Origin: Thermodesulfobacteriota bacterium
GTDB taxonomy: Bacteria > Desulfobacterota > Desulfarculia > JACQYL01
Direction of reading: 5' to 3'
Assembly (NCBI GenBank): GCA_963675595.2
Contig: CAXXLZ010000002.1
Span: forward strand, 2,112,001 to 2,176,000
DNA length: 64,000 bases
Numbering within the stretch: the stretch's first letter is position 1; each line of letters opens with the position of its first letter. Below, piece by piece: positions 1 through 21,447 of this stretch. A program made the position numbers and the translations under genes. The notes below the pieces were generated by a model. That model worked only from the letters and a program-made list of their open reading frames with translations. It was not told the origin of the DNA and did not search any database.

Positions 1-755
1 GTAAGGGCGGCGGTGACCCCCAACGCCGAATTGGTGAGGGCGAGCCCGGCCACGTACAAAACGCCGTGCACCACGATCCTTCCTCTCCCGGTCCCCGACC
101 GGCCGCCGAAGTAGGCGGCCGTAATGGGAATCAACGGGTACACGCAGGGAGTCAGGTTCAGGGCCACGCCACCCAGAAAGATGCCCAGTAGTGTCCACAG
201 GGCGGCCAACCCGGTGAAGGAACCGGGGGACAATGGCTGCCCGGCGCCTACCGAAGCCTGCGGCTTCGAACTCGCCGTGGGACGCCCCAGTCCTTGCCAC
301 TCGGGGAATCCCTGAGGATAGCGATATACGTTGCGGTAGCCCAATTGGACGGCCACCCGGGCCGCCGAGTCGCTGCGGACTCAGGTGAGCCCCGCTCAGT
401 AGAACACAAGGGTCCGATCCCGATCTCCTCCCAAGTAGGCTTTCAGTTCCTCTTTCTTCGTGAAACGGGCCCACCAGGTGGGTTCCATGGGGAAGTTGCC
501 CGCACCTTGGATATGTCCGGTTCGGTATTCCCATTCCTGACGCGTATCCACCAGAAGGAGTCCCTGACGGTCCTTGCGGTAGCGTTCCCAGAGTTCATCA
601 GCGTTCATCAGCCGGTAGCCGCCGGCTCGGGCTTCGGCTTCAACGTCCTCCCAAGTTGCCTGTTGTGGAGCCACGGGCCTGCTCGTGTACCACGCGATAC
701 CGGCGGCGGCCGACATGCAAAGAAGTACTATTATGATCTTATTTATCTTTTTCAT
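1..755 (-). CDS. Rhodanese (UxxxxU)-DsbD/CcdA membrane-domain fusion selenoprotein, runs off window start
   Basis: ORF 396-776 stops at TGA after LVFY. The frame continues U-AGLT-U-VRSDSAARVAVQLGYRNVYRYPQGFPEW (rhodanese C-terminal half), then LNLTPCVYPLIP (DsbD motif), with no other stop. TGAs at 396-398 and 381-383; hairpin at 348-366; GGAGA RBS before ATG 755. Confidence 0.85.
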
Positions 756-873
756 GAAGGCATCTCCACTTCGCACCGGTTCCCCGCACCTCCCTTTACT
801 CCGATGCGGAGGATCCCGGGCCGCCTCTAATTCGCCGTCTCGATAGTCGTTCGTGTCGCCCGACCGGACGTTG

Positions 874-2010
874 TCAGCGGCTTCATGTACCGCCCGCGGG
901 ACTGCACGCGGGCGCTTCCGTCGGTTTGTTCCCGAGTTCGGATACCGGTTTGTTTCCGGGTTCCGCCGCCGGTCGCTCGGACGGGGACATGGAATCGTAA
1001 AGCAGCTTGATCCGTGTGGCTCCCACGGTCATGGCCACCATCATGGCTTCCTTCAGTTCCTCTTCACCGGCTCCCAATTCCCTCGCGACCGCAAGGCAAT
1101 AGTTGGCTCATGGATCGCAGCCGGCGGCCAGGGATGCTCCGAGGGCGATCAAGTGCTTGGTCTTCCGGTCCAGAACACCGTCCGCGTAAACGCCTTCAAA
1201 AAAATCCCCATATTTGTCCAATGGATTCATGTTCGACCCCTTGTCCCTCAAAGAATAAACCGGCGGCGACTCCGCCCGGATCAACACGCCCTTGGTCACG
1301 GGGGAGGAATCGAAACCCGTTTCGGACACCAACTCCACATGCGTGAATCCCGACGCCTGAATCATTTCCAGGAAAACCTTTCCCGGTATCGCGCCGCCCA
1401 GTCAATGGTGCCATTGAGATATCCGGCCGGCCTTGTCGGAAGGCGCCTCGCCCACCAGTACCTGATCCGCGATCATCAGGCGCCCTCCGGGCCTCAGGAC
1501 CCGACGTACCTCGCGAAGCGCCGCCTTCTTATCCCCGATCAGGTTGAACACGCCGTTGGAAAGCACTACGTGGAAACTGCGGTCCGGAAAGGGCAGGTCC
1601 GTGGCGGACCCTTCCAGGAAAGTCACGTTTCCAAACCCGGTCAGGTGCCGGTTCCGCTCCGCTCGGTGCAGCATCTCGGGCGTCATGTCCACTCCGGCGA
1701 CACGCCCCTCGGAACCCGTCATGAAGGCGGCCGCCAGCGAATCCACGCCTCCGCCGCAGCCGATGTCCAGCACGGTTTCGCCTTTTTCCACCGGACCCAG
1801 AAAGAAGGGATTCCCCACACCGCAATAAGACGCTGAGACCTCGTCCGGGAGATTGCGAAGGAAATCGGGGTCATATCCCAACAATTCGAGTCCCTTCCTC
1901 CCCGTGGGATATCGAAACATGCCCTCGGGACTTCCGGCCGCCTTCGAATACCTGGCCCGGATTCCCTCATGAATTTTTTCCAGATCGTCGCCGGATAGTG
2001 TTAGTTCCAC
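874..2010 (-). CDS. ArsM-like SAM methyltransferase fused to an AhpD/CMD domain, 3 predicted Sec (378 aa)
   Basis: ORFs 1402-2010, 1108-1365 and 883-1077 share one frame and are separated only by TGA: QWHH-U-LGGA (ArsM W-x-x-C-x-x-GA position), GCDP-U-ANYC (AhpD CxxC) and GGT-U-SR-stop. SAM motif LDIGCGGG and YCGVGNP are present. A hairpin follows each TGA. Confidence 0.8.
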
Positions 2011-2158
2011 CGCTCATCCCCCATCTGTCTTACCAGCTTTGATGCCTCGGGCCGGTGTGTGCCGGTACGCCGCGCACCCCTGCGGCCGCCGTACCGGGTG
2101 CCCACAATGTGGTCCTATTCACGGGGTGTGCCGCAGGAGGACGTCGTCCCCCTGCCCC

Positions 2159-3543
2159 CATAAGCGCTAACTTAAGCCTTTTGTTTTGGTGAGGTTTATG
2201 GTACCGTTGCCGCCAAAGGAGGTGGCAATGGAGCGTCTCGTTTTTTCCGAGGAAATGGAAGACTGGGAAGTTCTCCAGGGTTTTCTTCCCGATGGCTGGC
2301 AATCCAAAGCAAGGGAACTTGGTGCCGTTGTCAGATACCGTAAGTTCGTGGACGCCGAAGGTCTGTTGCGAACGCTTCTGATCCATCTGGCGGAAGGTTG
2401 CTCACTTCGGCTGACGGCGGCCAAAGCCAGGTTCGGCAACATTACGTCGATTTCCGACGTAGCTCTCCTAAAACGACTGAATAAATGCGGAGAGTGGTTT
2501 CGGTGGATGGCCTTAGGGGTCATGGAGAAATGGTTTCGAAAGCTGCCCGCCGTTGTTTTTGGAGAGAATTCACGCATCAGGTTGATCGATGCCTCCACCA
2601 TTCAAGAACCTGGAAGTACCGGAACGACTTGGAGGGTCCATTATTCCATACAATTGCCTTCGCTGCGCTGCGACGAAGTCTATGTAACAGACCCCAAGAT
2701 CGGAGAATCCTTCACCAATTTCAAAGTCCATGGCGGTGAACTTCTTGTAGCGGATAGAGCCTATTGCACACCAAGAGGAATTCACCATGTCATAGACAAC
2801 GGCGGCGACGTCCTGGTTCGAATGAAACACCGTGTCGCCATGGTGGACAAGCAAGGGGAACGATTCCAATTACTCCCTCATCTAAGGACGTTACGTGTAA
2901 ATAAGCTTGGCGACTGGGATGCATTCGTTCCATTTGAACAACGCTTGGTTGCAGGTAGAATCTGTGCCATCAAGAAGAGCAAAGACGCCACTGAAAAAGC
3001 TCGTAAAGCGATAGAAAAAGAGGCGAGGAAAAAAGGTCGCCAAGTTACTCCGGACACCCTCGAAGCGGCGGCCTACATATTTGTTTTCACAACATTGGGC
3101 CGTGAAATCTCGCCCTCTCAGGTCCTCGAGATGTACCGAGGTCGATGGCAAATTGAACTCGCTTTCAAGCGTCTAAAGTCCATTCTCGGTTTAGGCCATC
3201 TTAGAAAGACCGACATCGAAGGAGCCAAGGCCTGGATCCATGGGAAACTACTGGTGGCTTTCTTAGTGGAGGCCATGATCGCCGCAGGCGAATCTTTTTT
3301 TCCCTGGGGATACCCACTCCAAAAAGAACCACCGTAGAAATCGATGCTTCTGGAGAGAGACCATGTTTATGTTACACCTGCTGAAACAAGCCGTGAACCC
3401 TAAACTCGGCTTGGCCGAATGCATTGCCGGCTGGGATAACATATCTTTTTATTTGCGAGAACCGCCAAGGAAACGAGCACTTCAGCGGCTGATTCCTCAG
3501 ACGGAAAGAAGCATAGCAAACAATGCTTAAGTTAGCGCTTATG
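2159..3543 (+). mobile_element. IS4-family insertion sequence, copy 1 (1385 bp)
   Basis: 19-bp terminal IR CATAAGCGCTAACTTAAGC; 11-bp target duplication CCCCCTGCCCC (2148-2158 and 3544-3554). Confidence 0.95.
2228..3337 (+). CDS. IS4-family DDE transposase
   Basis: IDAS, ADRAY and YRGRWQIELAFKRLK (YREK signature); AAGGAGG RBS before ATG 2228. Confidence 0.93.
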   Translation: MERLVFSEEMEDWEVLQGFLPDGWQSKARELGAVVRYRKFVDAEGLLRTLLIHLAEGCSLRLTAAKARFGNITSISDVALLKRLNKCGEWFRWMALGVMEKWFRKLPAVVFGENSRIRLIDASTIQEPGSTGTTWRVHYSIQLPSLRCDEVYVTDPKIGESFTNFKVHGGELLVADRAYCTPRGIHHVIDNGGDVLVRMKHRVAMVDKQGERFQLLPHLRTLRVNKLGDWDAFVPFEQRLVAGRICAIKKSKDATEKARKAIEKEARKKGRQVTPDTLEAAAYIFVFTTLGREISPSQVLEMYRGRWQIELAFKRLKSILGLGHLRKTDIEGAKAWIHGKLLVAFLVEAMIAAGESFFPWGYPLQKEPP

Positions 3544-3555
3544 CCCCCTGCCCCC

Positions 3556-4940
3556 CATAAGCGCTAACTTAAGCCTTTTGTTTTGGTGAGGTTTATGGTA
3601 CCGTTGCCGCCAAAGGAGGTGGCAATGGAGCGTCTCGTTTTTTCCGAGGAAATGGAAGACTGGGAAGTTCTCCAGGGTTTTCTTCCCGATGGCTGGCAAT
3701 CCAAAGCAAGGGAACTTGGTGCCGTTGTCAGATACCGTAAGTTCGTGGACGCCGAAGGTCTGTTGCGAACGCTTCTGATCCATCTGGCGGAAGGTTGCTC
3801 ACTTCGGCTGACGGCGGCCAAAGCCAGGTTCGGCAACATTACGTCGATTTCCGACGTAGCTCTCCTAAAACGACTGAATAAATGCGGAGAGTGGTTTCGG
3901 TGGATGGCCTTAGGGGTCATGGAGAAATGGTTTCGAAAGCTGCCCGCCGTTGTTTTTGGAGAGAATTCACGCATCAGGTTGATCGATGCCTCCACCATTC
4001 AAGAACCTGGAAGTACCGGAACGACTTGGAGGGTCCATTATTCCATACAATTGCCTTCGCTGCGCTGCGACGAAGTCTATGTAACAGACCCCAAGATCGG
4101 AGAATCCTTCACCAATTTCAAAGTCCATGGCGGTGAACTTCTTGTAGCGGATAGAGCCTATTGCACACCAAGAGGAATTCACCATGTCATAGACAACGGC
4201 GGCGACGTCCTGGTTCGAATGAAACACCGTGTCGCCATGGTGGACAAGCAAGGGGAACGATTCCAATTACTCCCTCATCTAAGGACGTTACGTGTAAATA
4301 AGCTTGGCGACTGGGATGCATTCGTTCCATTTGAACAACGCTTGGTTGCAGGTAGAATCTGTGCCATCAAGAAGAGCAAAGACGCCACTGAAAAAGCTCG
4401 TAAAGCGATAGAAAAAGAGGCGAGGAAAAAAGGTCGCCAAGTTACTCCGGACACCCTCGAAGCGGCGGCCTACATATTTGTTTTCACAACATTGGGCCGT
4501 GAAATCTCGCCCTCTCAGGTCCTCGAGATGTACCGAGGTCGATGGCAAATTGAACTCGCTTTCAAGCGTCTAAAGTCCATTCTCGGTTTAGGCCATCTTA
4601 GAAAGACCGACATCGAAGGAGCCAAGGCCTGGATCCATGGGAAACTACTGGTGGCTTTCTTAGTGGAGGCCATGATCGCCGCAGGCGAATCTTTTTTTCC
4701 CTGGGGATACCCACTCCAAAAAGAACCACCGTAGAAATCGATGCTTCTGGAGAGAGACCATGTTTATGTTACACCTGCTGAAACAAGCCGTGAACCCTAA
4801 ACTCGGCTTGGCCGAATGCATTGCCGGCTGGGATAACATATCTTTTTATTTGCGAGAACCGCCAAGGAAACGAGCACTTCAGCGGCTGATTCCTCAGACG
4901 GAAAGAAGCATAGCAAACAATGCTTAAGTTAGCGCTTATG
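3556..4940 (+). mobile_element. IS4-family insertion sequence, copy 2 (appears identical to copy 1)
   Basis: Same 19-bp IRs; 11-bp target duplication CCCCTGCCCCC (3545-3555 and 4941-4951). Confidence 0.95.
3625..4734 (+). CDS. IS4-family DDE transposase
   Basis: Protein identical to copy 1. Confidence 0.93.
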   Translation: MERLVFSEEMEDWEVLQGFLPDGWQSKARELGAVVRYRKFVDAEGLLRTLLIHLAEGCSLRLTAAKARFGNITSISDVALLKRLNKCGEWFRWMALGVMEKWFRKLPAVVFGENSRIRLIDASTIQEPGSTGTTWRVHYSIQLPSLRCDEVYVTDPKIGESFTNFKVHGGELLVADRAYCTPRGIHHVIDNGGDVLVRMKHRVAMVDKQGERFQLLPHLRTLRVNKLGDWDAFVPFEQRLVAGRICAIKKSKDATEKARKAIEKEARKKGRQVTPDTLEAAAYIFVFTTLGREISPSQVLEMYRGRWQIELAFKRLKSILGLGHLRKTDIEGAKAWIHGKLLVAFLVEAMIAAGESFFPWGYPLQKEPP

Positions 4941-4958
4941 CCCCTGCCCCCCTTCTTG

Positions 4959-4990
4959 CTCCTGCGAATCGCGCAGGCGATTCGCAGGAG
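4959..4990. repeat. Perfect palindrome (REP-like)
   Basis: CTCCTGCGAATCGC-gcag-GCGATTCGCAGGAG next to the IS target site. Confidence 0.6.
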
Positions 4991-5081
4991 CGGCATGTGC
5001 CGTCCAACCCGTTAAGACTCTAAAAGTTCTCAAAAAGGGTTCCCTCGGTCCCCCCTTCGAATGCTCACCGCATTGTCCCGA

Positions 5082-5390
5082 TTATCCTTCCATGGCTTCC
5101 GTCACCGCTGCGGAGAGAGCCCCCATTTCGGGAATGTGGTCGAAGGCAAGGCGTCCGTTGATCACCAGCGATGGAACCGGAGGTTTGTCTCCGCATAGCC
5201 GCTTGAGTTCCTCCTGCCTGGCGAGGCCCTCCCGTTCCCCCACGTCCACCACCGTCCACTCCAATCGCCCCTCGGGCAACTCTTCGGCCAATTCCTCCAA
5301 AACGGCCAATGCCAAATCACACAGCATGCATCCTTTCTTCTTGGCCACGATCTCCACGAATACCCGGCGGTTTTCCAGTGCCATAATCAT
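5082..5390 (-). CDS. Thioredoxin/glutaredoxin-like small protein (CxxC)
   Basis: GCMLC motif and VPSLVING cis-Pro motif; start at ATG 5390 or 5384. Confidence 0.75.
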   Translation of the reverse strand: MIMALENRRVFVEIVAKKKGCMLCDLALAVLEELAEELPEGRLEWTVVDVGEREGLARQEELKRLCGDKPPVPSLVINGRLAFDHIPEMGALSAAVTEAMEG

Positions 5391-5512
5391 CCCTACGGAC
5401 AATAACGCCTCTCCGAGGTTGCGTTCTCCCCCATGAGGCCTGGTTTCAAACGGTTCCCGCACATTGCGCCTCGCCGGAAGGCACGCTTTCCCCTCCCGGC
5501 GAGCTGCGGATG

Positions 5513-5767
5513 TCAGTCTTCCTCTTCCACCTTGATCCTTACGTCCGCGTAGCGGGTTCTTTTCTTGATCTGAGTGATCAGTTTTTCGGGATCCGTCTGC
5601 GAAGGATCATATTTCACTTTCGCACGTTTAAACACGGTACTGGTCTCGTACTCCAATACACCGGGTGACTCATCCAGAGCCACTTTGACCATGCCTTCTC
5701 AAGTCAGTCACTCCATCCTGGGGATGTAGAACGCCACTTCATTCACGATCGTATTTTCTCCCGACAC
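5513..5767 (-). CDS. Heavy-metal-associated (CopZ/MerP-like) selenoprotein, MxUxxU (84 aa); missing from the ORF track
   Basis: AGGAGG RBS plus GTG. Translation: ...FYIPRME-U-LT-U-EGMVKVALDESPGVLEYETSTVFKRAKVKYDPSQTDPEKLITQIKK. TGAs at 5708 and 5699 replace both Cys of MxCxxC; hairpin at 5665-5683. Confidence 0.88.
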
Positions 5768-5859
5768 GTCCGCCTCCTTTCCACGGCTTCGCATCCTGAT
5801 TCGGGGCGGTCCCCAAAAGGTCAAGCCTTCGCACATCAAGCCGTTTCGAACCCTGATGC

Positions 5860-6210
5860 TCAGAAGTTGAAGACCTGGGCTTCGGCCGCCAGCTCGATGA
5901 GATGCGGTCCTCCGTCCAGCACCATATTGGAGTAGAATTTGGCCTCGTCCACCTGACGAGCGCGGGCGCAGGGAATTCAGACTCCCACGGGGATCTCGTG
6001 CTCCACCAGGTGGGGGAAATAATCGTTGGGACAATCTCCCGTTTTGGTTTTTTCGTTGAAATCCCGGGTGGAATCCGCCCAAAGCGTTCCGTCGTCGATG
6101 AAGAACAGATTGACCGCATGCCCGGCCGCATGGGCCACTTTGGCCAGCTGGAAACAACGCGTAGCCGAGTCCACCTCGTCCCTGCTCAATACAAACAGAA
6201 ATTTCGCCAA
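5860..6210 (-). CDS. DsrE/F-like sulfur-relay selenoprotein, UxxC (116 aa)
   Basis: VNLFFIDDG DsrE motif; readthrough of TGA 5977 gives GV-U-IP-C-ARARQV...QVFNF; hairpin CTCGTC-AGGTG-GACGAG starts 16 nt downstream. Confidence 0.88.
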
Positions 6211-6264
6211 ACAGCGCCTCCTTTCTTCTCGGCCGAGACTCCGAAGAGGCCGAGGTTCATGGTT

Positions 6265-6738
6265 TCAATCGCTTGGAATGGAAGGAATCTTCCCCTCCGT
6301 TGCGAGCTTCTTGATCAAGAAACGGACTCCCGACCCGGAAACGCCCAGGTCTTCGGCAAGGCGAGCCGGATCGGCGCTTCCCTTGCTGCGCACCAAGGCG
6401 AGAACCTCCTCCTCCAGCTCTTCCAGCCAGTCCTCGAAGAGCACCAAAACTTCGGGCTCCGTAACCGCCTTCAATTGTTCGGATCGGCTCACCTTCTCCA
6501 CCAAACTTCGGCACATCTGCGTTGGATCGACACCTTCGTCCATGCATTCGGCCAGTCAACGGTGCACCATGCCGGCGGTCTTTTCATCGGCTCGCTCCCC
6601 GAAGAGTTCGACGACGAACCTGAGACGCTCCTCTTCTTCCATGAGCGCCAGACGTTTTCCGAGCAGGGAGGAAAGCAGGGGAAGCGCGTCCCGGTCTTCC
6701 ATGGAGTCCACCATCCGTTCCAAAGTCTCCAAATTCAT
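6265..6738 (-). CDS. Uncharacterised selenoprotein (UxxxC) with C-terminal winged-helix-like domain (157 aa)
   Basis: ORFs 6556-6738 and 6265-6543 are in frame across TGA 6556: GMVHR-U-LAE-C-MDEGVDPTQMC; hairpin at 6523-6542 with AGGTG loop. Confidence 0.75.
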
Positions 6739-6758
6739 GGCGTTTTCCCCGTTGCAGG

Positions 6759-7175
6759 TTAGAAGATTTTGGCCGCTTTCCCGAGATCTTCGGCGAGGGA
6801 GGAAAGGCTCGTCAGGATTTCCCCCACACGTTCATCGGCCGACCGGTAATAAATGAAGGGGCCCCGCCGCTCCACTTGCACCAGAAAGGAACGTTTCAGT
6901 TCTTTGAGATGATGCGAAACCAGGGGTTGGGAGAGGCCGAGTTCCTCCACGATTTTCGACACGCTCTTTTCCTTGCGGCTCACACATAGAAGAATTCTCA
7001 GGCGATTCTCATCGGAAAAGCACTTGGACAGGAAGGCGACACCCTGAAGGTTCAGTGAATCCACGAGCCGCGTTGCGGAATCGACGGGCATGGGCGTCTG
7101 ATTTCGAGACGGAGGTTCAAGCATGCGGGTCCGTTCGCAATGAGGGTTCAACGTAATCAACATATCAATATACAT
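6759..7175 (-). CDS. ArsR/SmtB-family transcriptional regulator (true start probably downstream, near 7124 or 7091)
   Basis: FSDENRLRIL...LSQPLVSHHLKELK...ERRGPFIYY HTH signature. Confidence 0.9.
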   Translation of the reverse strand: MYIDMLITLNPHCERTRMLEPPSRNQTPMPVDSATRLVDSLNLQGVAFLSKCFSDENRLRILLCVSRKEKSVSKIVEELGLSQPLVSHHLKELKRSFLVQVERRGPFIYYRSADERVGEILTSLSSLAEDLGKAAKIF

Positions 7176-7205
7176 TTATATATTGATCCCGCATGTCCTT
7201 GTCAA
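7164..7205 (-). promoter_or_regulatory. Sigma70 promoter overlapped by a 9-6-9 palindrome (candidate ArsR operator)
   Basis: TTGACA (7205-7200)-N17-TATATA; ATCAATATA-N6-TATATTGAT at 7164-7187. Confidence 0.65.
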
Positions 7206-7357
7206 GCCTTCTTATGCGCCCCCTTTGAACCACGGCCCTTCAACGACCCTCTCACATCTATCCGCCGATCGTACGAAGTCATTGGTAAGCATTTGAAATC
7301 TCATCGCTATTCCAAATCACACTTTCTCGGGTTCTCGACCCTTCCCAAAAGGAAACT

Positions 7358-7386
7358 TTGACATTCTCGATCTTTTGAGCTATTTT
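7358..7386 (+). promoter_or_regulatory. Sigma70 promoter of the micro-gene
   Basis: TTGACA-N17-TATTTT. Confidence 0.65.
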
Positions 7387-7419
7387 ATATCGGAATCATC
7401 AATAACAGGAGACAAAAAG

Positions 7420-7500
7420 ATGCTTACCCTGAAGTCCGTAGAGAAGAAGGTGGTGCGTCAAGGGAACAAGCCGGCTACGTGACACGGCCCTGAAGCGTAA
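7420..7500 (+). CDS. 26-aa predicted selenopeptide MLTLKSVEKKVVRQGNKPAT-U-HGPEA
   Basis: AGGAGA RBS; in-frame TGA 7480-7482; TAA 7498-7500; hairpin AACCGCC-GGTC-GGCGGTT at 7500-7517; own promoter and terminator. Confidence 0.72.
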
Positions 7501-7578
7501 ACCGCCGGTCGGCGGTTCCAAAACGGGTAAACCCCAACGGACGAGCTTCAAACCATGGACCCCGTTCCGTCGGGACCC

Positions 7579-7613
7579 AAAAAAACCCGGGATCGCTCCC
7601 GGGTTTCTTGTTT
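7579..7613. terminator. Probable bidirectional intrinsic terminator
   Basis: A-run, AAACCCGGGA-TCGC-TCCCGGGTTT, then T-rich tract, between convergent genes. Confidence 0.75.
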
Positions 7614-7638
7614 CTCAATCCCGATGCTTCACGCGCGG

Positions 7639-9360
7639 TCAATATGGACGCGACGATTCCCCCGTTTTGTCCCGCACCTCCATGGACCCGACCGCATAGA
7701 GCCGTAACGCTCCCGTCACGCCTTTAACATTCGCCTCAAAGGGCCGCAGGACTTTCACATAGTCCCGCACCGACTCCAGAACGGCCTCCGACACCACCAC
7801 TTCACCCTCCCGGGCTTCGGTTTGGATCCGCTGAGTCAGGTTCACGGCGGCGCCCACAATGCCGTATTTCGCGCGAATCTCGGAACCCACATTCCCCACG
7901 ATCACCTCACCGGTGTGCACCCCGATTCCCATGCTCAGGCTCGGCAGGCCCGGGACCTTCTCCAATTCGTTCATCATGTCCAAGGCAACCTGCATATCCA
8001 ACGCGCATCTCACCGCATCGAGGCTTCTGTCCTCCGGAACGGCGTCCAACGGATCGAAAAACACCAGCATGGCGTCCCCGATAAAATCCACGATAATGCC
8101 TTCATGTGAACGGACCACCTGGATCATTCTCGAATAATACCGGTTCAGTACTGTGATCACCGTTTCCGGCTCCATTCGCTCGCACAACGCGGTAAATCCC
8201 CTGAGGTCGGACATCAAAATAAACACTCTGCGTTTCTCTCCGCCCAACCGGGTGGATTCCGGCCGCCGCAGGAGCTTTTCGGCGACTTCACGATCCATGT
8301 AGCGGCCGAAAGTCGTTCGTATGAACTCCTGTTGCCTCAAAGACTCCACCATGGCATTGAAGCCGGCGGCCAGCCGTCCCACCTCATCGGAAGTTCGGAC
8401 CTTCACGGTTTCGCCGTAATCGCCCTCGGCCACCCGTTCCGCAGCCAGAGCGATCTCCCGAATGGAGCGCACGGTTCGAGAGGACACATATTGGATCAGA
8501 AACAGCACCATCCCGATACACAACGCGCCCAAGAGCCCGAAGTAGTTGCGAAAACGTATGATGGGCTTGAGAATCTCGTCGCCCTGCGCGAAGACCACGA
8601 CGCTCCAGGGCGCCTGCTTGAGGCGAAAGAAGCCGGCCACTTCTTCCGGAGGATGCCCTTCCCCGAAGATCGTACCGGAAGGCCTCTCTTTCATCGCCTG
8701 AAGCACCCGGGCTTCCAATGGGCTGCCGCTTCCTCCCAGCACTCGCCTTCCCGAATCTCCGGACGAAGTGTGAGCCAGGTAGCGCCCGGAAGCGTCCACC
8801 AAGCAGCCCTTCACTCCCTGCCACCAACTGCTCGCCACCAGATCGGCAATCAGATGATGCAGTTGAACGGTCACAAGAACTCTGCCGACGATGCGTCTCT
8901 GTTCGTCCAGCAACTCGGATACGAGTGTCACGCTTTCACTGCCCGTATCCGGATCCAACTCGGGAGGAGTCACCACCGACACGCGATCCTGCGTAGACAT
9001 CATCCGTCCGCCCATGTGGCGGCCGCCGAAGGCGAACATGGAAGACTCATTAGACCATTCCAGGTCCACGCTTTGAACGCCGTCCAGACTCCTGAGCTCC
9101 TCCAGCACGTGTTCTTGAGCCCTCAATCCTCCGCCCACCGGGATTCGGCGAAGCAGGGAAAGCCACTGAACGGGTTCCTCCAGACGCATGTCGACCTGAT
9201 GGGCGGCCCACCCCAGCTTGAGGATGGCGGCTTCCTTCCACTGATCCAACATGATGTTCCGCGCATAGATGAATCCCACGAATCCCGTCAGGAAAAGAAG
9301 CAGCGCCACCGGGCACAGGACCCAGATCATCAATCGCCTGCGTAGGCTTGAGGCTTTCAA
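7639..9360 (-). CDS. Class III adenylate/guanylate cyclase with periplasmic Cache-like and HAMP domains
   Basis: Two TM helices; HAMP (DEVGRLAAGFN); MSDLRGFT, FIGDAML, GIGVHTG, GAAVNLTQR. Confidence 0.9.
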   Translation of the reverse strand: MKASSLRRRLMIWVLCPVALLLFLTGFVGFIYARNIMLDQWKEAAILKLGWAAHQVDMRLEEPVQWLSLLRRIPVGGGLRAQEHVLEELRSLDGVQSVDLEWSNESSMFAFGGRHMGGRMMSTQDRVSVVTPPELDPDTGSESVTLVSELLDEQRRIVGRVLVTVQLHHLIADLVASSWWQGVKGCLVDASGRYLAHTSSGDSGRRVLGGSGSPLEARVLQAMKERPSGTIFGEGHPPEEVAGFFRLKQAPWSVVVFAQGDEILKPIIRFRNYFGLLGALCIGMVLFLIQYVSSRTVRSIREIALAAERVAEGDYGETVKVRTSDEVGRLAAGFNAMVESLRQQEFIRTTFGRYMDREVAEKLLRRPESTRLGGEKRRVFILMSDLRGFTALCERMEPETVITVLNRYYSRMIQVVRSHEGIIVDFIGDAMLVFFDPLDAVPEDRSLDAVRCALDMQVALDMMNELEKVPGLPSLSMGIGVHTGEVIVGNVGSEIRAKYGIVGAAVNLTQRIQTEAREGEVVVSEAVLESVRDYVKVLRPFEANVKGVTGALRLYAVGSMEVRDKTGESSRPY

Positions 9361-14057: not shown

Positions 14058-16511
14058 CTATTTGTCCCGGGTCGCCCCGGCTTCCGTTTCCACCGCCCCC
14101 TCGACGTCTCGTCGAATCACGTTCTTCAGGTGCTTCCGATCTTTCAGGGGATGAAATTCCACACGACGGTTTTCGGTGCGTCCCTCCGCCGTGCCGTTGG
14201 TCGCCACGGGGATGGTGAATCCGTATCCGGATACGGGTAACCGGGATCCGTCGATCCCCTTGTTCACGAGATATCGCCTTACCGCCACGGCCCTTCGAAG
14301 CGCCAAGGCTCGATTATAGCTTTCCGTTCCCACGTTGTCCGTGTGGCCCTGTACGTCCACCACCAATTCGGAATTCTTCTTCAGAATGTCCGCCACGGCG
14401 TCCAGCAGAGGATATCCGGCCCGCTTGACGACGGACTTGTCGAAATCAAAAAGCACGTTGCCCACGGACCAGCATCCACGGTCATCCACTCGCGCACCCG
14501 CGGGAGTCCCCGGACACTGATCCAGGTAATCGGCGACGCCGTCGCCGTCCGTATCCAGCGGACAACCTTCCTTATCCACAGGAGCGCAAGCGGGCGTATC
14601 CGGGCATTTATCCAGGTAATCCGGCACCCCGTCCTTGTCGGAATCCAACGGACAACCTCGCTTATCCACCGCCACGCCCGTCGGCGTATCCGGGCACTCG
14701 TCCAGATCATCGATCACGCCGTCGCCGTCCGTATCCTTCTTTTCCGCTTTCTCCGGCACACGAATGATGACCGGCACCGCTCCGCCCGAAGGCGCGGACA
14801 CGGCGGCCGGCGGCCCGGCGGCAAACTCGGCGGGTTTCCCCGGTTCTTCCACGGCCGATTTCACGGGTTCCTCGACAACCGATTCCTTGACTTCCTTTAC
14901 GCAACCCCGCTCGTCCACCACGGACTCCGGAGGCGTATCGGGACAGAGATCCCGATAGTCCGGCACTCCGTCGCCATCGGAATCCTTGGGGCATCCCAGT
15001 TCATCCACCACGGCTCCCACGGGGGTTTCCGGGCACTGATCCAGGTAATCGGGAACACCATCGCCGTCCGTGTCCTTCGGACAGCCTCGCTTGTCCACCG
15101 CCACTCCGGCGGGAGTCTTCGGACACTCGTCCAGATAGTCGTAGACACCGTCTTTGTCCTCATCCGGGGGGCATCCGTTTTCGCTCACGATAAGGCCCTT
15201 CATGGTATCGGGGCATTCATCCGATGCGTCCGCCACCCCGTCGCCGTCGGAATCCTTGGGGCATCCCAGATCGTCCACAACGATTCCCTTCGCGGTACCC
15301 GGACACAAGTCCAGGTAATCCGGGATACCGTCGCCGTCCGTATCCTTGGGACAACCCTTCTCATCCACCATGACGCCTCTCGGCGTATCGGGGCACTCAT
15401 CCAAATAATCGAACACGGTGTCCGAGTCGGCATCCTTTGGGCAACCACGTTCATCCACAGCTATGTCCTTCGGGGTGTCCGGACACACGTCACGGTAATC
15501 CGGAACACCATCGCCGTCCGCATCCATGGCGCAACCCCGGTCATCCACGGCGACTCCTTTGGGGGTTCCGGGGCACTCATCCAGGTAATCCGGAACACCG
15601 TCGCCGTCGGCGTCTTTGGGGCAACCCATCTCATCCACTTGAGCTTCCTTGGGTGTGTCCGGGCAGCGATCCAGATAATCCGGAACGCCGTCGCCATCGG
15701 AATCCTCCGGACACCCACGGGCGTCCACTTTTATGCCGGCAGGCGTATCCGGACAGACGTCTTTTGGATCGTGCACGCCGTCCATATCCGAGTCCGGAGT
15801 CTCCTGGAGGAACACCTGTTTCACATATTCCGCCATACCCTCGCTCGAATAAATGCGAATCGGATGGGTGAAAAAGCCGCATTTCACCGTCCGCGGCATT
15901 TGCTCCATGAGGACTTCGCCCGGAAACGATTCTCCCACGAACACCGTGTAGATACAGAGTCGATCCCGATATTCTTTTTCCAGCTTCCTCGCCTCTTCGA
16001 TGGGTTTGTCGTCCATCAGCTCCCCGTCGCTGAACACCAGAAGTCCCAGCTTACCGGGGGCGTCTTTGAAATCTTCCGCGGCCGCCTTGACGGCTTCATG
16101 AAGCGGACTGTCTCCCGCGGCATATTTGATCCGATCCAAGGCTTTTTCGAAGCCGTCCCGCGTATAAGCCTCGGGACCGTAAACCAGTTCCGTCCGGGTG
16201 CCGAAACGCGAAGCCCCAGCTCCGAACGTCCGAATCGCACCGGTCAATTTCAGATTCGGAATCGTTTGATTCATCCGGTTCAATACTTCTTTGGCATATT
16301 CGAATTTCGTTTGCTTGCCGAGTTTGTCTTCCATAGACAAAGAGGCATCGAAAAGAACGACGAAAGAGTCCAACTTTTGGACGTATTGCCCGGTTTCAAG
16401 AACCGGATTCAGGTCCACCGGCGTAAATCCGGCCCCGGCGGGAAAACTCAGGCCGAGGATGAGAAGAAAAACCACACCCCCACAAAATCCCCAATTACGA
16501 CTTCCAGCCAT
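14058..16511 (-). CDS. vWA domain + thrombospondin type 3 repeats + OmpA C-terminal domain protein
   Basis: Signal peptide, DASLSM MIDAS motif, DxDGDGVPDYLDxCP repeats, FDFDKS...GHTD...NRRVE. Confidence 0.9.
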   Translation of the reverse strand: MAGSRNWGFCGGVVFLLILGLSFPAGAGFTPVDLNPVLETGQYVQKLDSFVVLFDASLSMEDKLGKQTKFEYAKEVLNRMNQTIPNLKLTGAIRTFGAGASRFGTRTELVYGPEAYTRDGFEKALDRIKYAAGDSPLHEAVKAAAEDFKDAPGKLGLLVFSDGELMDDKPIEEARKLEKEYRDRLCIYTVFVGESFPGEVLMEQMPRTVKCGFFTHPIRIYSSEGMAEYVKQVFLQETPDSDMDGVHDPKDVCPDTPAGIKVDARGCPEDSDGDGVPDYLDRCPDTPKEAQVDEMGCPKDADGDGVPDYLDECPGTPKGVAVDDRGCAMDADGDGVPDYRDVCPDTPKDIAVDERGCPKDADSDTVFDYLDECPDTPRGVMVDEKGCPKDTDGDGIPDYLDLCPGTAKGIVVDDLGCPKDSDGDGVADASDECPDTMKGLIVSENGCPPDEDKDGVYDYLDECPKTPAGVAVDKRGCPKDTDGDGVPDYLDQCPETPVGAVVDELGCPKDSDGDGVPDYRDLCPDTPPESVVDERGCVKEVKESVVEEPVKSAVEEPGKPAEFAAGPPAAVSAPSGGAVPVIIRVPEKAEKKDTDGDGVIDDLDECPDTPTGVAVDKRGCPLDSDKDGVPDYLDKCPDTPACAPVDKEGCPLDTDGDGVADYLDQCPGTPAGARVDDRGCWSVGNVLFDFDKSVVKRAGYPLLDAVADILKKNSELVVDVQGHTDNVGTESYNRALALRRAVAVRRYLVNKGIDGSRLPVSGYGFTIPVATNGTAEGRTENRRVEFHPLKDRKHLKNVIRRDVEGAVETEAGATRDK
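14473..15795 (-). repeat. 13 degenerate 90-bp coding repeats (TSP3), arranged 10+3 around a Pro/Ala/Glu linker
   Basis: Counted in the translation; 30-aa period with 2 Cys each; boundaries approximate. Confidence 0.85.
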
Positions 16512-16927
16512 AACGCCTCCCTGTTTGCCTGCAAAGCAATTGTCCGTTTTATTCCGCTTTTTCGAATTCTCAACAGCTCAATGGAACAACTCCCACCGAA
16601 ATGAAGAACGGCATTTCACCGCTTCCTGAAAGCCCGCTCCTTAAACGGGATTCGGTCGCAACCGTCGCCCGCCGGGTCGGGTCCGCTCTCTCCCGATCGT
16701 GACGGGCCGCCTTACCCCGCGGTGAGCGGTTTCCATTATACGCAAACTCGTCGGCTCCGGGCATCGGGTCGGTACTGTAAAGCAAGGACTCACCCGATAC
16801 GAGTGTCGGTTTGCGACGATTTCATTATAAGGCAGGTTCTACGGGATACGGAAAGAATTCGTTCGACCGGTATGTTACATTTCCGGGCGGCAGGGAAGCA
16901 GTGATTCGATTCTTGGGGAGGCGGGGA

Positions 16928-19107: not shown

Positions 19108-21447
19108 TCAGAATTTGAGTTCAAAACCCATGGCAAGTACCAGGCCGCTCAGATCAAAGTCCTCCGACCCGAATCGATCGATGATCTCGTAGCGGCCTTC
19201 CATCACCAGGAAAGACTCCTTGACACCGGTGGCTTTGTACAGAGTGTGGGCGTCCTCCGGGGAAAATCGGTTCAGAAGAAGCCGCAGCCCCAAAGAACCA
19301 TGATATCCCACGGTGAATCCATCGACATTGTCTTCCCGATTATCGATGTCCTCCCGATAGTAGAGGCCTTGGACTCCTCCGTCCACATACGGCACCAACA
19401 GCTGGTTTTCCAGGTAGTCGAATCGGTATCGAATGGTGAATTCCGCGGGCGCGATCCACAAAGTGGAGTCCTGGCCGCTCTTTCTTCCCGAGGCCGTCAA
19501 GGCCTCCGCGGTTAGATGCTTAAACCCGGCGCCCACGGTGGTTTCAAAATTGGTTCGATTTACCCAGGTGACGGTGAACGACGTGGCGAGCCCGCCGTCC
19601 CCGTAAGTGTCCTCCACCCGTCCTTGGGTGGGCTTGTAGTATCCTCCCTTGACTCCGAGCATGATGCCCGTGATGCCGTAGTCATCCAGTGCGTAAGCGG
19701 AACCGCAGACCGCCGTCCAAGCCAGGAGCAGGATCGCCGCAATTCGCCCGGCCTTGGGACCTTTTCCGCGAATACCGGCAACCAGAGCGACGATGATCAG
19801 GATCAGCATGAGTCCCCACATCCGTCCTCGAGCCGTGGTGTCGATGAAGCATCCCCCACCCGAGGGGATGGCGCCCGGAACCGCTTCGGGAACCTGAGAG
19901 ACCTCGCCGCCGGGCTCACTCTGGTTCAACGCCTTGTCCAAAGCCGACACCGTGGCGTAGTAGGTCACACCGTTTTCCAGCCCTTTCAAATCATAAACCG
20001 TGACGTTTCCCGTATCCACCTGGTTTTCCAATTGGCCGGAAACCGTACCGTACGCCACCCGATACCCGCCGATGCCCGACCCCGAATCCGAGGCGGAATC
20101 CCACCGAAGTCGCAGCAAGCCGTCGCCGGGCTCGGCCCGCAGATTCTCCGGGGTGGAAGGCGCCACCGTGTCCAGATACACCTTGGTCGCCATGCGACCT
20201 GTGAGCTCGGTGTTCGCGGGGTCCACATACACGAACACATAGTAGTCTTGATCACCTGAAGTGAAGTCTTCGGAAGTCAGGATTTCGGATACGGTTCCGC
20301 CTGCCTCCATGGTGCCCGTCCGAACGGTTTCCCCGGACCCTTTGGTTCCGGTGCCGCCTACTTCGATTTGGTATGAACCGGCCGAGTCGGAAGTCCACGT
20401 GATGGTGGTTTCGTTGTTCTTACCATTGTTGATCGCCTCGGGGACCGCATCTTGAACGGTCACTTGGGGACCGTCCGTGAGTACGCTCACCGTGCCGTCG
20501 CCGCTGTTCACGACCAGCAGGTACCTTCCGCCGGGCGACAAGGCCAGCCCTTTCGGCTCGTCTCCCACCGCTACGTCTCCGAGTTCCAACGAGAAATCCG
20601 ACAGCCTGACCACATCGACACTGTCGTCCAGTTGATTGGTGACAAAGAGGAATTCGTTGTCCGGGTCCAACGCGACCGCGTAGGGTTGGTTCCCCACGGT
20701 CACGGCATCTACGAACGTGGCATCGGAAAGCTTCATCTTGGCTACGGCGTCCTCCCCTGCGAGGGCGAAGTAGGCAAACTCTCCCGCGGAATCCAAGACG
20801 AGCCCTCTGGGCGAGGCCCCCACCACCGCCGAGCCCGTGAGGGTGAATTCCTTCACGTCGATCACGGCGCCCGTGCCGAAACCCTCGCTGCTCACCACCA
20901 GAGAATCTCCGTCCGGGGTGATGCTCAAGCCGAAGGGCAAAGCGCCTTCACCCAGGGCCACGGCCTCCCTCAGAGTGAAGTCCGAGGTCTTATACGCCGC
21001 AAGGGTGTCTTCGTTGCGGGCGGCCACGAAAATCTCCTCGCCATCGGAGCTCAGGGCAAGCCCCAAGGGAAAGAGCCCGCTCGCGAAATGGGAGGAAACC
21101 GTGAAATCGGCGGTTTCGATGACCGACACCGTACTATCCAGGGAATTGGCAACGTAGAGCAGGTTCTCGGAAGAACTCAATATCAATCCGATGGGCTCGG
21201 TTCCCACCTCCAGTTCGCCGTCCGGGGCAAACCGGTAGAGGTCGATGCGGCTTATGGTACCGTCACCCGTGTTGGTGACGTAGGCATATCGCCCGTCGTC
21301 GGCGACCACGAGCATGGACGGTTTCTCCCCCACGCTCAGAGTGTAAACGACCCGGTTGGGAAACCCGAGCGCCGCGGTGGAGGGGAGGCACAACATCGCC
21401 GTAACGACGAGAAGAAAAATTGCCCCGGGAAATCTCACGATGTTCAT
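19108..21447 (-). CDS. YVTN/YncE beta-propeller + FN3 + GGGCFI sorting signal + outer-membrane beta-barrel fusion
   Basis: YVTN-type repeats, FN3 (LENGVTYYATVSALD), SGGGCFID plus TM, second signal-like segment, barrel ending in FELKF. Confidence 0.8.
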   Translation of the reverse strand: MNIVRFPGAIFLLVVTAMLCLPSTAALGFPNRVVYTLSVGEKPSMLVVADDGRYAYVTNTGDGTISRIDLYRFAPDGELEVGTEPIGLILSSSENLLYVANSLDSTVSVIETADFTVSSHFASGLFPLGLALSSDGEEIFVAARNEDTLAAYKTSDFTLREAVALGEGALPFGLSITPDGDSLVVSSEGFGTGAVIDVKEFTLTGSAVVGASPRGLVLDSAGEFAYFALAGEDAVAKMKLSDATFVDAVTVGNQPYAVALDPDNEFLFVTNQLDDSVDVVRLSDFSLELGDVAVGDEPKGLALSPGGRYLLVVNSGDGTVSVLTDGPQVTVQDAVPEAINNGKNNETTITWTSDSAGSYQIEVGGTGTKGSGETVRTGTMEAGGTVSEILTSEDFTSGDQDYYVFVYVDPANTELTGRMATKVYLDTVAPSTPENLRAEPGDGLLRLRWDSASDSGSGIGGYRVAYGTVSGQLENQVDTGNVTVYDLKGLENGVTYYATVSALDKALNQSEPGGEVSQVPEAVPGAIPSGGGCFIDTTARGRMWGLMLILIIVALVAGIRGKGPKAGRIAAILLLAWTAVCGSAYALDDYGITGIMLGVKGGYYKPTQGRVEDTYGDGGLATSFTVTWVNRTNFETTVGAGFKHLTAEALTASGRKSGQDSTLWIAPAEFTIRYRFDYLENQLLVPYVDGGVQGLYYREDIDNREDNVDGFTVGYHGSLGLRLLLNRFSPEDAHTLYKATGVKESFLVMEGRYEIIDRFGSEDFDLSGLVLAMGFELKF

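Follow-up and report, generated by a model that had tools for sequence, protein, structure and literature searches.

A small conserved gene with an in-frame TGA codon and a SECIS-like hairpin in its 3' untranslated region, and its probable selenopeptide product

Organization of the locus

The DNA considered here, called the window below, is a stretch of 64,000 nucleotides from a Thermodesulfobacteriota bacterium (GTDB lineage Desulfobacterota; Desulfarculia; JACQYL01), namely positions 2,112,001 to 2,176,000 of contig CAXXLZ010000002.1 in assembly GCA_963675595.2, and it contains at 7358-7616 a small gene whose open reading frame (ORF) is interrupted by a TGA codon that is probably read as selenocysteine (Sec, U). 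Reading of the sequence over 7200-7750 together with a consensus scan identifies, in order, a promoter, a Shine-Dalgarno site, the TGA-containing ORF, a GGUC hairpin and a terminator. These same five elements had been proposed in a first-pass annotation of the window, and all are present where it had placed them. The features of the unit are as follows.

7358-7386, plus strand: predicted sigma-70-type promoter, TTGACA at 7358-7363 and TATTTT at 7381-7386, separated by 17 nt and in agreement with the consensus at 10 of 12 positions
7407-7412, plus strand: Shine-Dalgarno sequence AGGAGA, 7 nt upstream of the ATG
7420-7500, plus strand: small ORF, MLTLKSVEKKVVRQGNKPAT-U-HGPEA, of 26 codons and a stop, with ATG at 7420 and TAA at 7498-7500
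7480-7482, plus strand: in-frame TGA, codon 21, presumably read as Sec; TGA in six of six family members
7500-7517, plus strand: hairpin resembling a selenocysteine insertion sequence (SECIS), arms 7500-7506 and 7511-7517 forming a perfect 7-bp stem, GGUC loop at 7507-7510
7518-7582, plus strand: 3' untranslated spacer, unconserved across the six downstream sequences compared
7583-7616, plus strand: intrinsic-terminator-like hairpin, 10 pairs at 7583-7606 followed by a T-rich tail

Transcription would start at about 7393. The predicted peptide is basic and has 26 residues. The final base of the TAA, 17 nt past the TGA, is also the first base of the SECIS-like hairpin, which folds with an energy of -11.6 kcal/mol. 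On the 5' side the unit is flanked by a divergent ArsR-family gene (6759-7175, minus strand; Pfam-checked). On the 3' side the terminator at 7583-7606 is probably bidirectional because of an A-run on its 5' side, and would then be common to the small gene and a convergent HAMP-cyclase gene (7639-9360).

A conserved family of short peptides

A DNA search of 40 related genomes yields three short significant matches centred on the TGA and the hairpin, each of them a homologous small ORF, and with two loci from metagenomes the family has at least six distinct members: those of the window, of genomes G002, G003 and G004, and of metagenome loci L063 and L144. The six peptides are 26-32 residues long: MLTLKSVEKKVVRQGNKPATUHGPEA, MLKIRRIEKKIVQSGSKPATUHGPEK, MLEIKSVEVKVVKINHKPATUHGPES, VLTIKTVEKKRTKPVDTKKAVYVATUHGPEA, VLKIKKVEKKRTKPMDSGKAVYAATUHGPEA and MLKVKRVEKKQIIVTVGKKKTTYAATUHGPEA. 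All follow one plan, an N-terminus of the form ML.[ILV][KR].[VI]E.K, a variable linker of 10-16 residues and an invariant A-T-U-H-G-P-E-x-stop core. The surrounding signals are equally constant. A promoter TTGACA-N17-TAnnnT is found at six of six loci, with its -35 box 62-67 nt upstream of the start codon; a GGAGG-like site precedes the ATG or GTG start at each; the start codon is in frame with the TGA in every member despite upstream parts of 20, 25 or 26 codons; and a second stop, TAA or TAG, lies exactly five codons past the TGA without exception. The codon at the TGA position is TGA in all six, and TAA, TAG or a cysteine (Cys) codon in none. Terminators comparable to that of the window stand 3' of the small ORF in L017 and L063, and a simple scan finds none 3' of it in L016, L018 and L144.

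Each of the six promoters has, at two constant positions, a short C[AG]AT box or a form of it that differs by one base, 4 nt past the -35 hexamer and 13 nt past the -10 hexamer (7368-7371 and 7400-7403 in the window). The box could serve a shared regulator as operator, or its recurrence could be due to chance.

Since the whole arrangement recurs at five other distinct loci, it is more than chance, and the comparison marks the small gene as a conserved one and not a chance ORF. The proposal of the first-pass annotation, a stand-alone unit for a 26-residue selenopeptide, is borne out to the extent that homologues each have their own promoter, keep the TGA, the frame and the second stop, and are followed by a covarying hairpin. 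The findings that were to count against that proposal, i.e. a lack of homologues or of coding-type conservation, a lack of translation, or TAA or TAG at the TGA position, did not appear. The pattern of variation is that of codons: within the seven-codon A-T-U-H-G-P-E core only four columns vary, all of them synonymous third positions and two of them downstream of the TGA, where the third positions of Gly and Pro vary and are followed by one free codon (A, K or S) and the stop. At the other end of the peptide Leu2 is specified by CTT, CTG or TTG, and position 7 (Val or Ile) by five different codons.

Such periodicity does not by itself fix the coding strand, because one antisense frame (..YASGPC[QH]VA.., ..FFST..) shows the same third-position periodicity, and the opposite strand is stop-free for 52-64 codons across the region at all six loci. 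It is nevertheless most improbable that the plus strand carries no gene and that the conservation stems from an antisense ORF or from chance. In two of the six (window and L018) a stop within the conserved region interrupts the antisense frame, which also lacks a conserved start, Shine-Dalgarno site or promoter and would have to cross both the covarying hairpin and the unconserved 3' untranslated region (UTR), whereas at six of six loci a promoter, a Shine-Dalgarno site, a start and a stop are found on the sense strand. On account of the stop in two members and the missing conserved start and promoter the antisense ORF was rejected and the sense strand is taken as coding. Against chance stands the rarity of the complete arrangement: the exact 24-letter pattern ACNTGACAYGGNCCNGARNNNTAR has 11 matches in 185,579 species genomes (one genome per species), of which only three, all in relatives, have the full upstream ORF and are true homologues; the other eight lack that ORF and are chance matches.

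The distribution of the family is narrow. Of 95 genomes of the class, 4 have the exact core pattern, all of them in the order to which the window belongs and amounting to four of the five genomes of that order, with one copy per carrier genome; an even sample of the phylum gives it in 1 of 401 genomes, the window's own. A covariance model (R1) run over the class recovers the same four genomes, and eight of its 11 weak class matches (E 0.014-0.1) were inspected and contain no homologue. Among the matches listed from a metagenome scan, at least 120 in number, L063 and L144 are new variants and L079 is a copy of the G002 form, the other 117 of 120 listed being chance matches or other genes; further family members may exist in metagenomes. 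One metagenome frame, '..EAQAT*HGPER..', was considered as a larger protein bearing the motif and was rejected, as it consists of an ordinary stop followed by the start of a dapA-like gene.

At the protein level a profile search of 1.84 billion protein representatives finds no homologue of any length, in a collection for which ORFs this short are seldom called; its three matches at E <=0.001 are long repetitive proteins and not homologues. No Cys (TGY) form is present in the five genomes of the order, and the absence of a Cys form more widely is only weakly shown because ORFs this short are rarely called. Four of the six peptides were scanned against Pfam, which has no family for them, and four of the six against NCBIfam, in which no model matches at E up to 10. 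Rfam 15 gives no matches in the whole window at gathering thresholds, and at relaxed thresholds (E up to 10) over 7100-7800 it gives weak terminator-like matches only.

Contigs from public sequencing runs show 0 differences from the window at 7379-7652 versus 16 differing positions in 7289-7378, a contrast that is weak at the low depth available and that includes one run which may itself be the source of the window DNA.

The hairpin as a SECIS element

Bacterial SECIS elements, as characterized in the part of PMC13188914 drawn upon here, have an apical loop of 3-9 nt on a stem of 4-16 bp, G within the first two positions of that loop, a UGA-to-loop distance of 16-37 nt and a fold energy of -7.5 kcal/mol or lower. 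All four published properties are found in six of six members, whose hairpins have stems of 6-9 bp, loops of 3-5 nt containing GG (GGUC, CGGGA, CGGGC, GGC, CGGGA and UGGAU) and fold energies of -10.0 to -12.1 kcal/mol. In each the stem starts within one base of the stop codon and the apical loop begins exactly 24 nt past the UGA. The stem also covaries: 36 of 36 cells are standard pairs, three of six pairs are changed on both sides, and the covariation score is 0.611 versus 0.257 in shuffles (reached by 1 of 500) and at most 0.200 with a slid 3' partner, for an alignment that was fitted to a covariance model derived from four of the six. This covariation is good support for a SECIS, and it falls short of proof because the alignment is model-fitted and consists of few, related sequences. 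None of the six downstream sequences has a U-tail behind the hairpin, which is therefore not a terminator. A SECIS hairpin placed behind the stop codon of a C-terminal Sec has been described in the accessible part of 10.1101/2022.07.06.499078. A second hairpin, in the 5' UTR, was entertained as a feature of the family and dropped, since it is present in only two or three of the six members.

The simplest competing view is that the UGA is an ordinary stop, as a UGA normally is, so that translation would yield a Lys-rich peptide of 20 residues, and what is conserved beyond it, sequence and hairpin, would form a 3' element acting, for example, in RNA stability or protein binding. In its favor the synonymous sites past the UGA are just two. 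It appears unlikely, however, given that a second in-frame stop is found exactly five codons on in all six members, that the variation past the TGA follows the codon frame, and that the hairpin has every property of a SECIS at a fixed 24-nt spacing and without a U-tail. Moreover, the peptide-carrying genomes also have SelB.

The decoding machinery is indeed at hand. SelB (TIGR00475) scores above its curated cut-off in five of five genomes of the order, and tRNA-Sec is found in the genome of the window. In homology-supported Sec genes of the same window, ArsM-, AhpD- and DsrE-like, the GGU of the loop lies at +21 to +27 relative to the UGA, and for the small ORF it lies at +28. The first-pass annotation had noted that the same GGTC loop follows two TGAs of the neighboring operon, which holds in part: the exact apical loop recurs after the AhpD-like TGA at 1110, 6 kb away, and the DsrE-like (5979) and ArsM-like (1404) TGAs are followed by loops containing GGU. 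GGTC also comes after both TGAs of the U-x-x-U metal-binding gene (5710, 5701), there outside any predicted loop.

These genes form part of a Sec-rich neighborhood at 383-7175 on the minus strand, all of them downstream of or near the ArsR regulator. By translation they comprise a rhodanese-like gene with two in-frame TGAs (398, 383), an ArsM-like methyltransferase gene with ..WHH-U (TGA 1404), an AhpD-like gene with C-D-P-U (TGA 1110), a DsrE-like gene with GV-U-IPCA (TGA 5979), and a small HMA-like metal-binding gene reading M-E-U-L-T-U (TGAs 5710 and 5701).

Proposed expression and function of the selenopeptide

It is highly probable, from the comparative evidence, that the small gene is genuinely Sec-recoded. 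The proposed course of expression begins with the sigma-70-type promoter and Shine-Dalgarno site, which would drive translation of the 26-codon ORF. The UGA at codon 21 would be recoded to Sec by SelB carrying Sec-tRNA(Sec), with SelB recruited by the short hairpin that lies wholly in the 3' UTR, its loop 24 nt past the UGA; when the UGA occupies the ribosomal A site the hairpin should still be outside the ribosome and able to present SelB. Five more codons, H-G-P-E-A, would then be read before termination. The peptide itself is proposed to be the functional product, a small free selenoprotein whose Sec-His pair, on a flexible tail, would carry out redox or soft-metal chemistry and whose N-terminal segment probably docks it to a partner. 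A free selenopeptide with the Sec-His tail as its active part thus appears to be the most likely output of the unit, and we infer Sec insertion, expression and the whole of this function from the features described. As a whole, a recoded unit making a free functional selenopeptide is the best explanation, with a probability of roughly 0.7. Granted recoding, a free functional selenopeptide has about an even chance, a precursor modified by unlinked enzymes is considerably less probable, and the remainder falls to regulatory or other roles. The suggestions of the first-pass annotation that the peptide is a metal binder, a selenium store or a sensor are unsupported.

Several observations weigh against this explanation. 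The peptide is absent from G001, a 95% complete genome of the same family. Nearly all selenoprotein families have a Cys homologue, according to the part of PMC13188914 consulted, and no Cys homologue has been found here, which removes the usual support from Sec/Cys pairs, although such a pair helps to identify a selenoprotein gene without being part of its definition. Counts are small, since there are six distinct sequences from a narrow clade with related members, and the synonymous sites downstream of the TGA number only two. To these are added the compatibility of the third-position periodicity with an antisense frame and the model-fitted alignment behind the covariation score.

A regulatory role in which the peptide is incidental has also been considered. 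The unit would sense selenium or Sec-decoding capacity, since a ribosome stopping at the UGA or running on to the TAA and melting the hairpin would alter the fate or activity of a short RNA; in a variant, the unit would be a SelB-titrating decoy. The invariance of the TGA in six of six members and the lack of a known Cys form are what is expected if the recoding event itself matters, and the hairpin abuts the second stop, so that from the geometry a ribosome at the TAA must unwind it and one at the UGA need not. A precedent exists in Treponema primitia, for which selenium-dependent control through UGA-coupled translation is reported in the part of PMC3892789 consulted. A pure sensor role thus fits the obligatory TGA, but it fits poorly with the conserved peptide ends, the unconserved 3' UTR and the missing downstream gene, and is improbable. 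At both ends of the peptide the codons change synonymously and the amino acids are kept; the 3' UTR past the hairpin is unconserved, so that no conserved effector RNA is visible; and in the window, L017 and L063, where terminators are present, the unit includes no downstream gene. These terminators, together with the convergent gene in the window, also set the unit apart from a leader-peptide attenuator. The distance from the N-terminal motif to the C-terminus varies by up to 6 residues, which is at odds with a peptide that arrests in the ribosomal tunnel.

Resemblance to formate dehydrogenase

The U-H-G-P motif carries the selenium ligand in formate dehydrogenase (FDH) H. Both the peptide and E. 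coli FdhF have the U-H-G-P core, with an Ala two or three residues ahead of the U, and the likeness extends to the RNA: the match to fdhF that the first-pass annotation had pointed to is confirmed, in that E. coli K-12 fdhF has the same 11 nt counted from the TGA (TGACACGGCCC) and the same GGUC loop. More generally, PMC13188914 lists U-H-x-P for formate dehydrogenase alpha and for formylmethanofuran dehydrogenase B as their Sec motif. FdhF differs, however, in being a molybdoenzyme of 715 residues whose SECIS is located within the coding sequence, the loop starting 18 nt past the UGA as against 24 nt in the peptide gene. The peptide has neither a pterin-binding domain nor any Pfam domain, and resembles the FDH alpha site without being a member of that family.

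The genome of the window has three FDH-type genes of its own with an in-frame TGA (G000:C2:4120443-4123505, 3228665-3229723 and 19182-20246), their contexts being ARI-U-HSAT, CART-U-HAPT and CARL-U-HSST, and loops of GGGCU or GGUCU follow two of the three. Their Sec sites thus read U-H-S-A, U-H-A-P and U-H-S-S and none reads U-H-G-P. Because these genes read differently, recent descent of the peptide from them is not shown; the idea is unsupported also in that no other genomic TGACAYGGNCC site lies in an FDH-like frame. The resemblance may reflect descent from an FDH fragment, mimicry or coincidence.

The same resemblance underlies a further and rather unlikely possibility, that a hitherto unknown selenium-based small molecule or cofactor has the peptide as its ribosomal precursor or as its working form. 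The Sec-His-Gly-Pro tail would copy the metal-ligating loop of FDH, and would either undergo processing by unlinked enzymes or directly bind Mo, W or another soft metal. Sec would be obligatory, since no Cys form has been found, and selenium supply, acting through the UGA and the 3'-UTR SECIS, would gate the output of peptide.

Gene neighborhoods and the question of a modified precursor

The genes flanking the small ORF differ among the six loci as follows.

Window: ArsR and cyclase
L016 and L063: MlaD/ABC auxiliary lipoprotein and DUF2333
L017: TraB family and DUF2333
L018: chemoreceptor and unknown ORF
L144: acyl-CoA dehydrogenase and DUF169

Only in L144 is there a same-strand gene, that for DUF169, about 280 nt downstream of the small ORF. 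A convergent DUF2333 gene follows the small ORF in the second family of the order (L016 9160-10443, L017 9208-10584, L063 3507-4784); as the window, L018 and L144 are without DUF2333, this adjacency is probably mere synteny among relatives and not a functional link.

These neighborhoods bear on the suggestion of the first-pass annotation that the peptide is the precursor of a peptide made on ribosomes and then modified post-translationally (a RiPP), or of a cofactor, its N-terminus being a leader for an enzyme encoded elsewhere and its A-T-U-H-G-P-E core being modified (e.g. at Sec or His) and released. The leader-core part of that suggestion is seen in the sequences: a conserved N-terminus, a linker of 10-16 residues and an invariant C-terminal core are the usual layout of such precursors, with which the peptide is compatible without the layout being specific to them. 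The small gene also has a strong predicted promoter of its own, and a Sec-containing RiPP precursor family is on record, TIGR04081 or 'selenobacteriocin', in the part of PMC13188914 consulted. A maturase-like neighbor is found at 0 of 6 loci, so that the remark of the first-pass annotation that no maturase lies adjacent is correct for the window, and the neighbors differ between families. Co-occurrence profiling, which covered MNIO, PqqD and YcaO with radical SAM/SPASM enzymes outside its range, finds MbnB/TglH-type MNIO (PF05114) in 0 of 5 genomes of the order, PqqD-type domains (PF05402) in 3 of 5 and absent from the carriers G003 and G004, and YcaO (PF02624) in 5 of 5, the non-carrier G001 included. 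Neither TIGR04081 nor any other NCBIfam model matches the four members scanned. Because the neighbors differ, no maturase is adjacent and MNIO, PqqD and YcaO do not co-occur with the peptide, a RiPP precursor is possible but unsupported, and is on balance doubtful.

Cofactor precursor peptides such as PqqA and MftA likewise have very short ORFs, a C-terminal core that is invariant, and their own strong expression signals; they lie in operons with maturases, use a PqqD-type recognition domain and contain no Sec. PqqD is absent from two of the peptide-carrying genomes. SbtA, the precursor of a thio(seleno)oxazole RiPP with the radical SAM maturase SbtM, is similar to the present peptide in being a small ribosomal peptide with encoded Sec, and it sits beside its maturase. 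The peptide differs from it in having a single Sec in A-T-U-H-G-P-E (T-U-H-G), no match to the hidden Markov model and no adjacent enzyme, SbtA (TIGR04081) being described with an SGUG motif and two Sec residues in the part of PMC13188914 consulted. TIGR04081 is the only Sec-containing RiPP precursor family found on record in the table of that paper (its reference 90), as far as the available part of the source extends.

Relation to other selenoproteins with C-terminal Sec

Recoding of a UGA through a SelB-binding hairpin is a known kind of mechanism. In SaoC, which averages 158 residues, the UGA is followed by UAG and then by a hairpin with a GGU loop (10.1101/2022.07.06.499078, in the part accessible), and the C-terminal-Sec family names 'UXX-star' and 'KCU-star' are listed in the consulted part of PMC13188914. 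The peptide shares with these a Sec few residues from the end and, because of that position, a SelB-recruiting hairpin outside the ORF. In SaoC, UXX-star and KCU-star, however, the Sec belongs to the tail of an ordinary-sized protein, whereas here the whole protein has 26-32 residues and no Cys form has been found. Nor does the peptide belong to UXX-star or KCU-star (NF041114, NF041211, NF033934), as there is no NCBIfam match and its Sec lies six from the end and not three or one. What appears to be new, on present sequence comparisons, is the combination of a 26-32-residue product, a SECIS wholly in the 3' UTR, a stand-alone unit and the lack of a known Cys form. The family is not mentioned in the main texts of the selenoproteome reviews and database papers searched, supplementary tables lying outside that search.

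The best reading is thus of a narrowly distributed stand-alone selenopeptide family with a 3'-UTR SECIS. If Sec is inserted, the product is smaller than any selenoprotein family in the lists checked. A selenoprotein pipeline has been described with a step that sets a 200-nt ORF threshold (PMC13326102), and pipelines using Cys/Sec pairs or minimum ORF lengths would be expected to miss an 81-nt ORF without a Cys homologue, so that further genes of this kind may exist. That every known member uses Sec is unusual and suggests either a chemistry in which sulfur cannot replace selenium or a role for the recoding event itself. The unit amounts to a natural minimal UGA-plus-SECIS cassette, and the peptide is short enough for synthesis and for tests of redox activity and metal binding. 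Its value would be lower if the peptide is a clade-restricted accessory without a measurable phenotype.

Other features of the window

Two identical ORFs of 383 residues are arranged in tandem at 2186-3337 and 3583-4734 (plus strand), 1397 bp apart; they look by eye like IS4-type DDE transposases, and they separate the ArsM- and AhpD-like genes from the ArsR operon. At 14058-16619 (minus strand) an ORF of about 820-850 residues has, from its translation, many repeats of the type D-x-D-G-D-G-V-P-D-Y-x-D-x-C-P-D-T-P and an OmpA-like C-terminal end.

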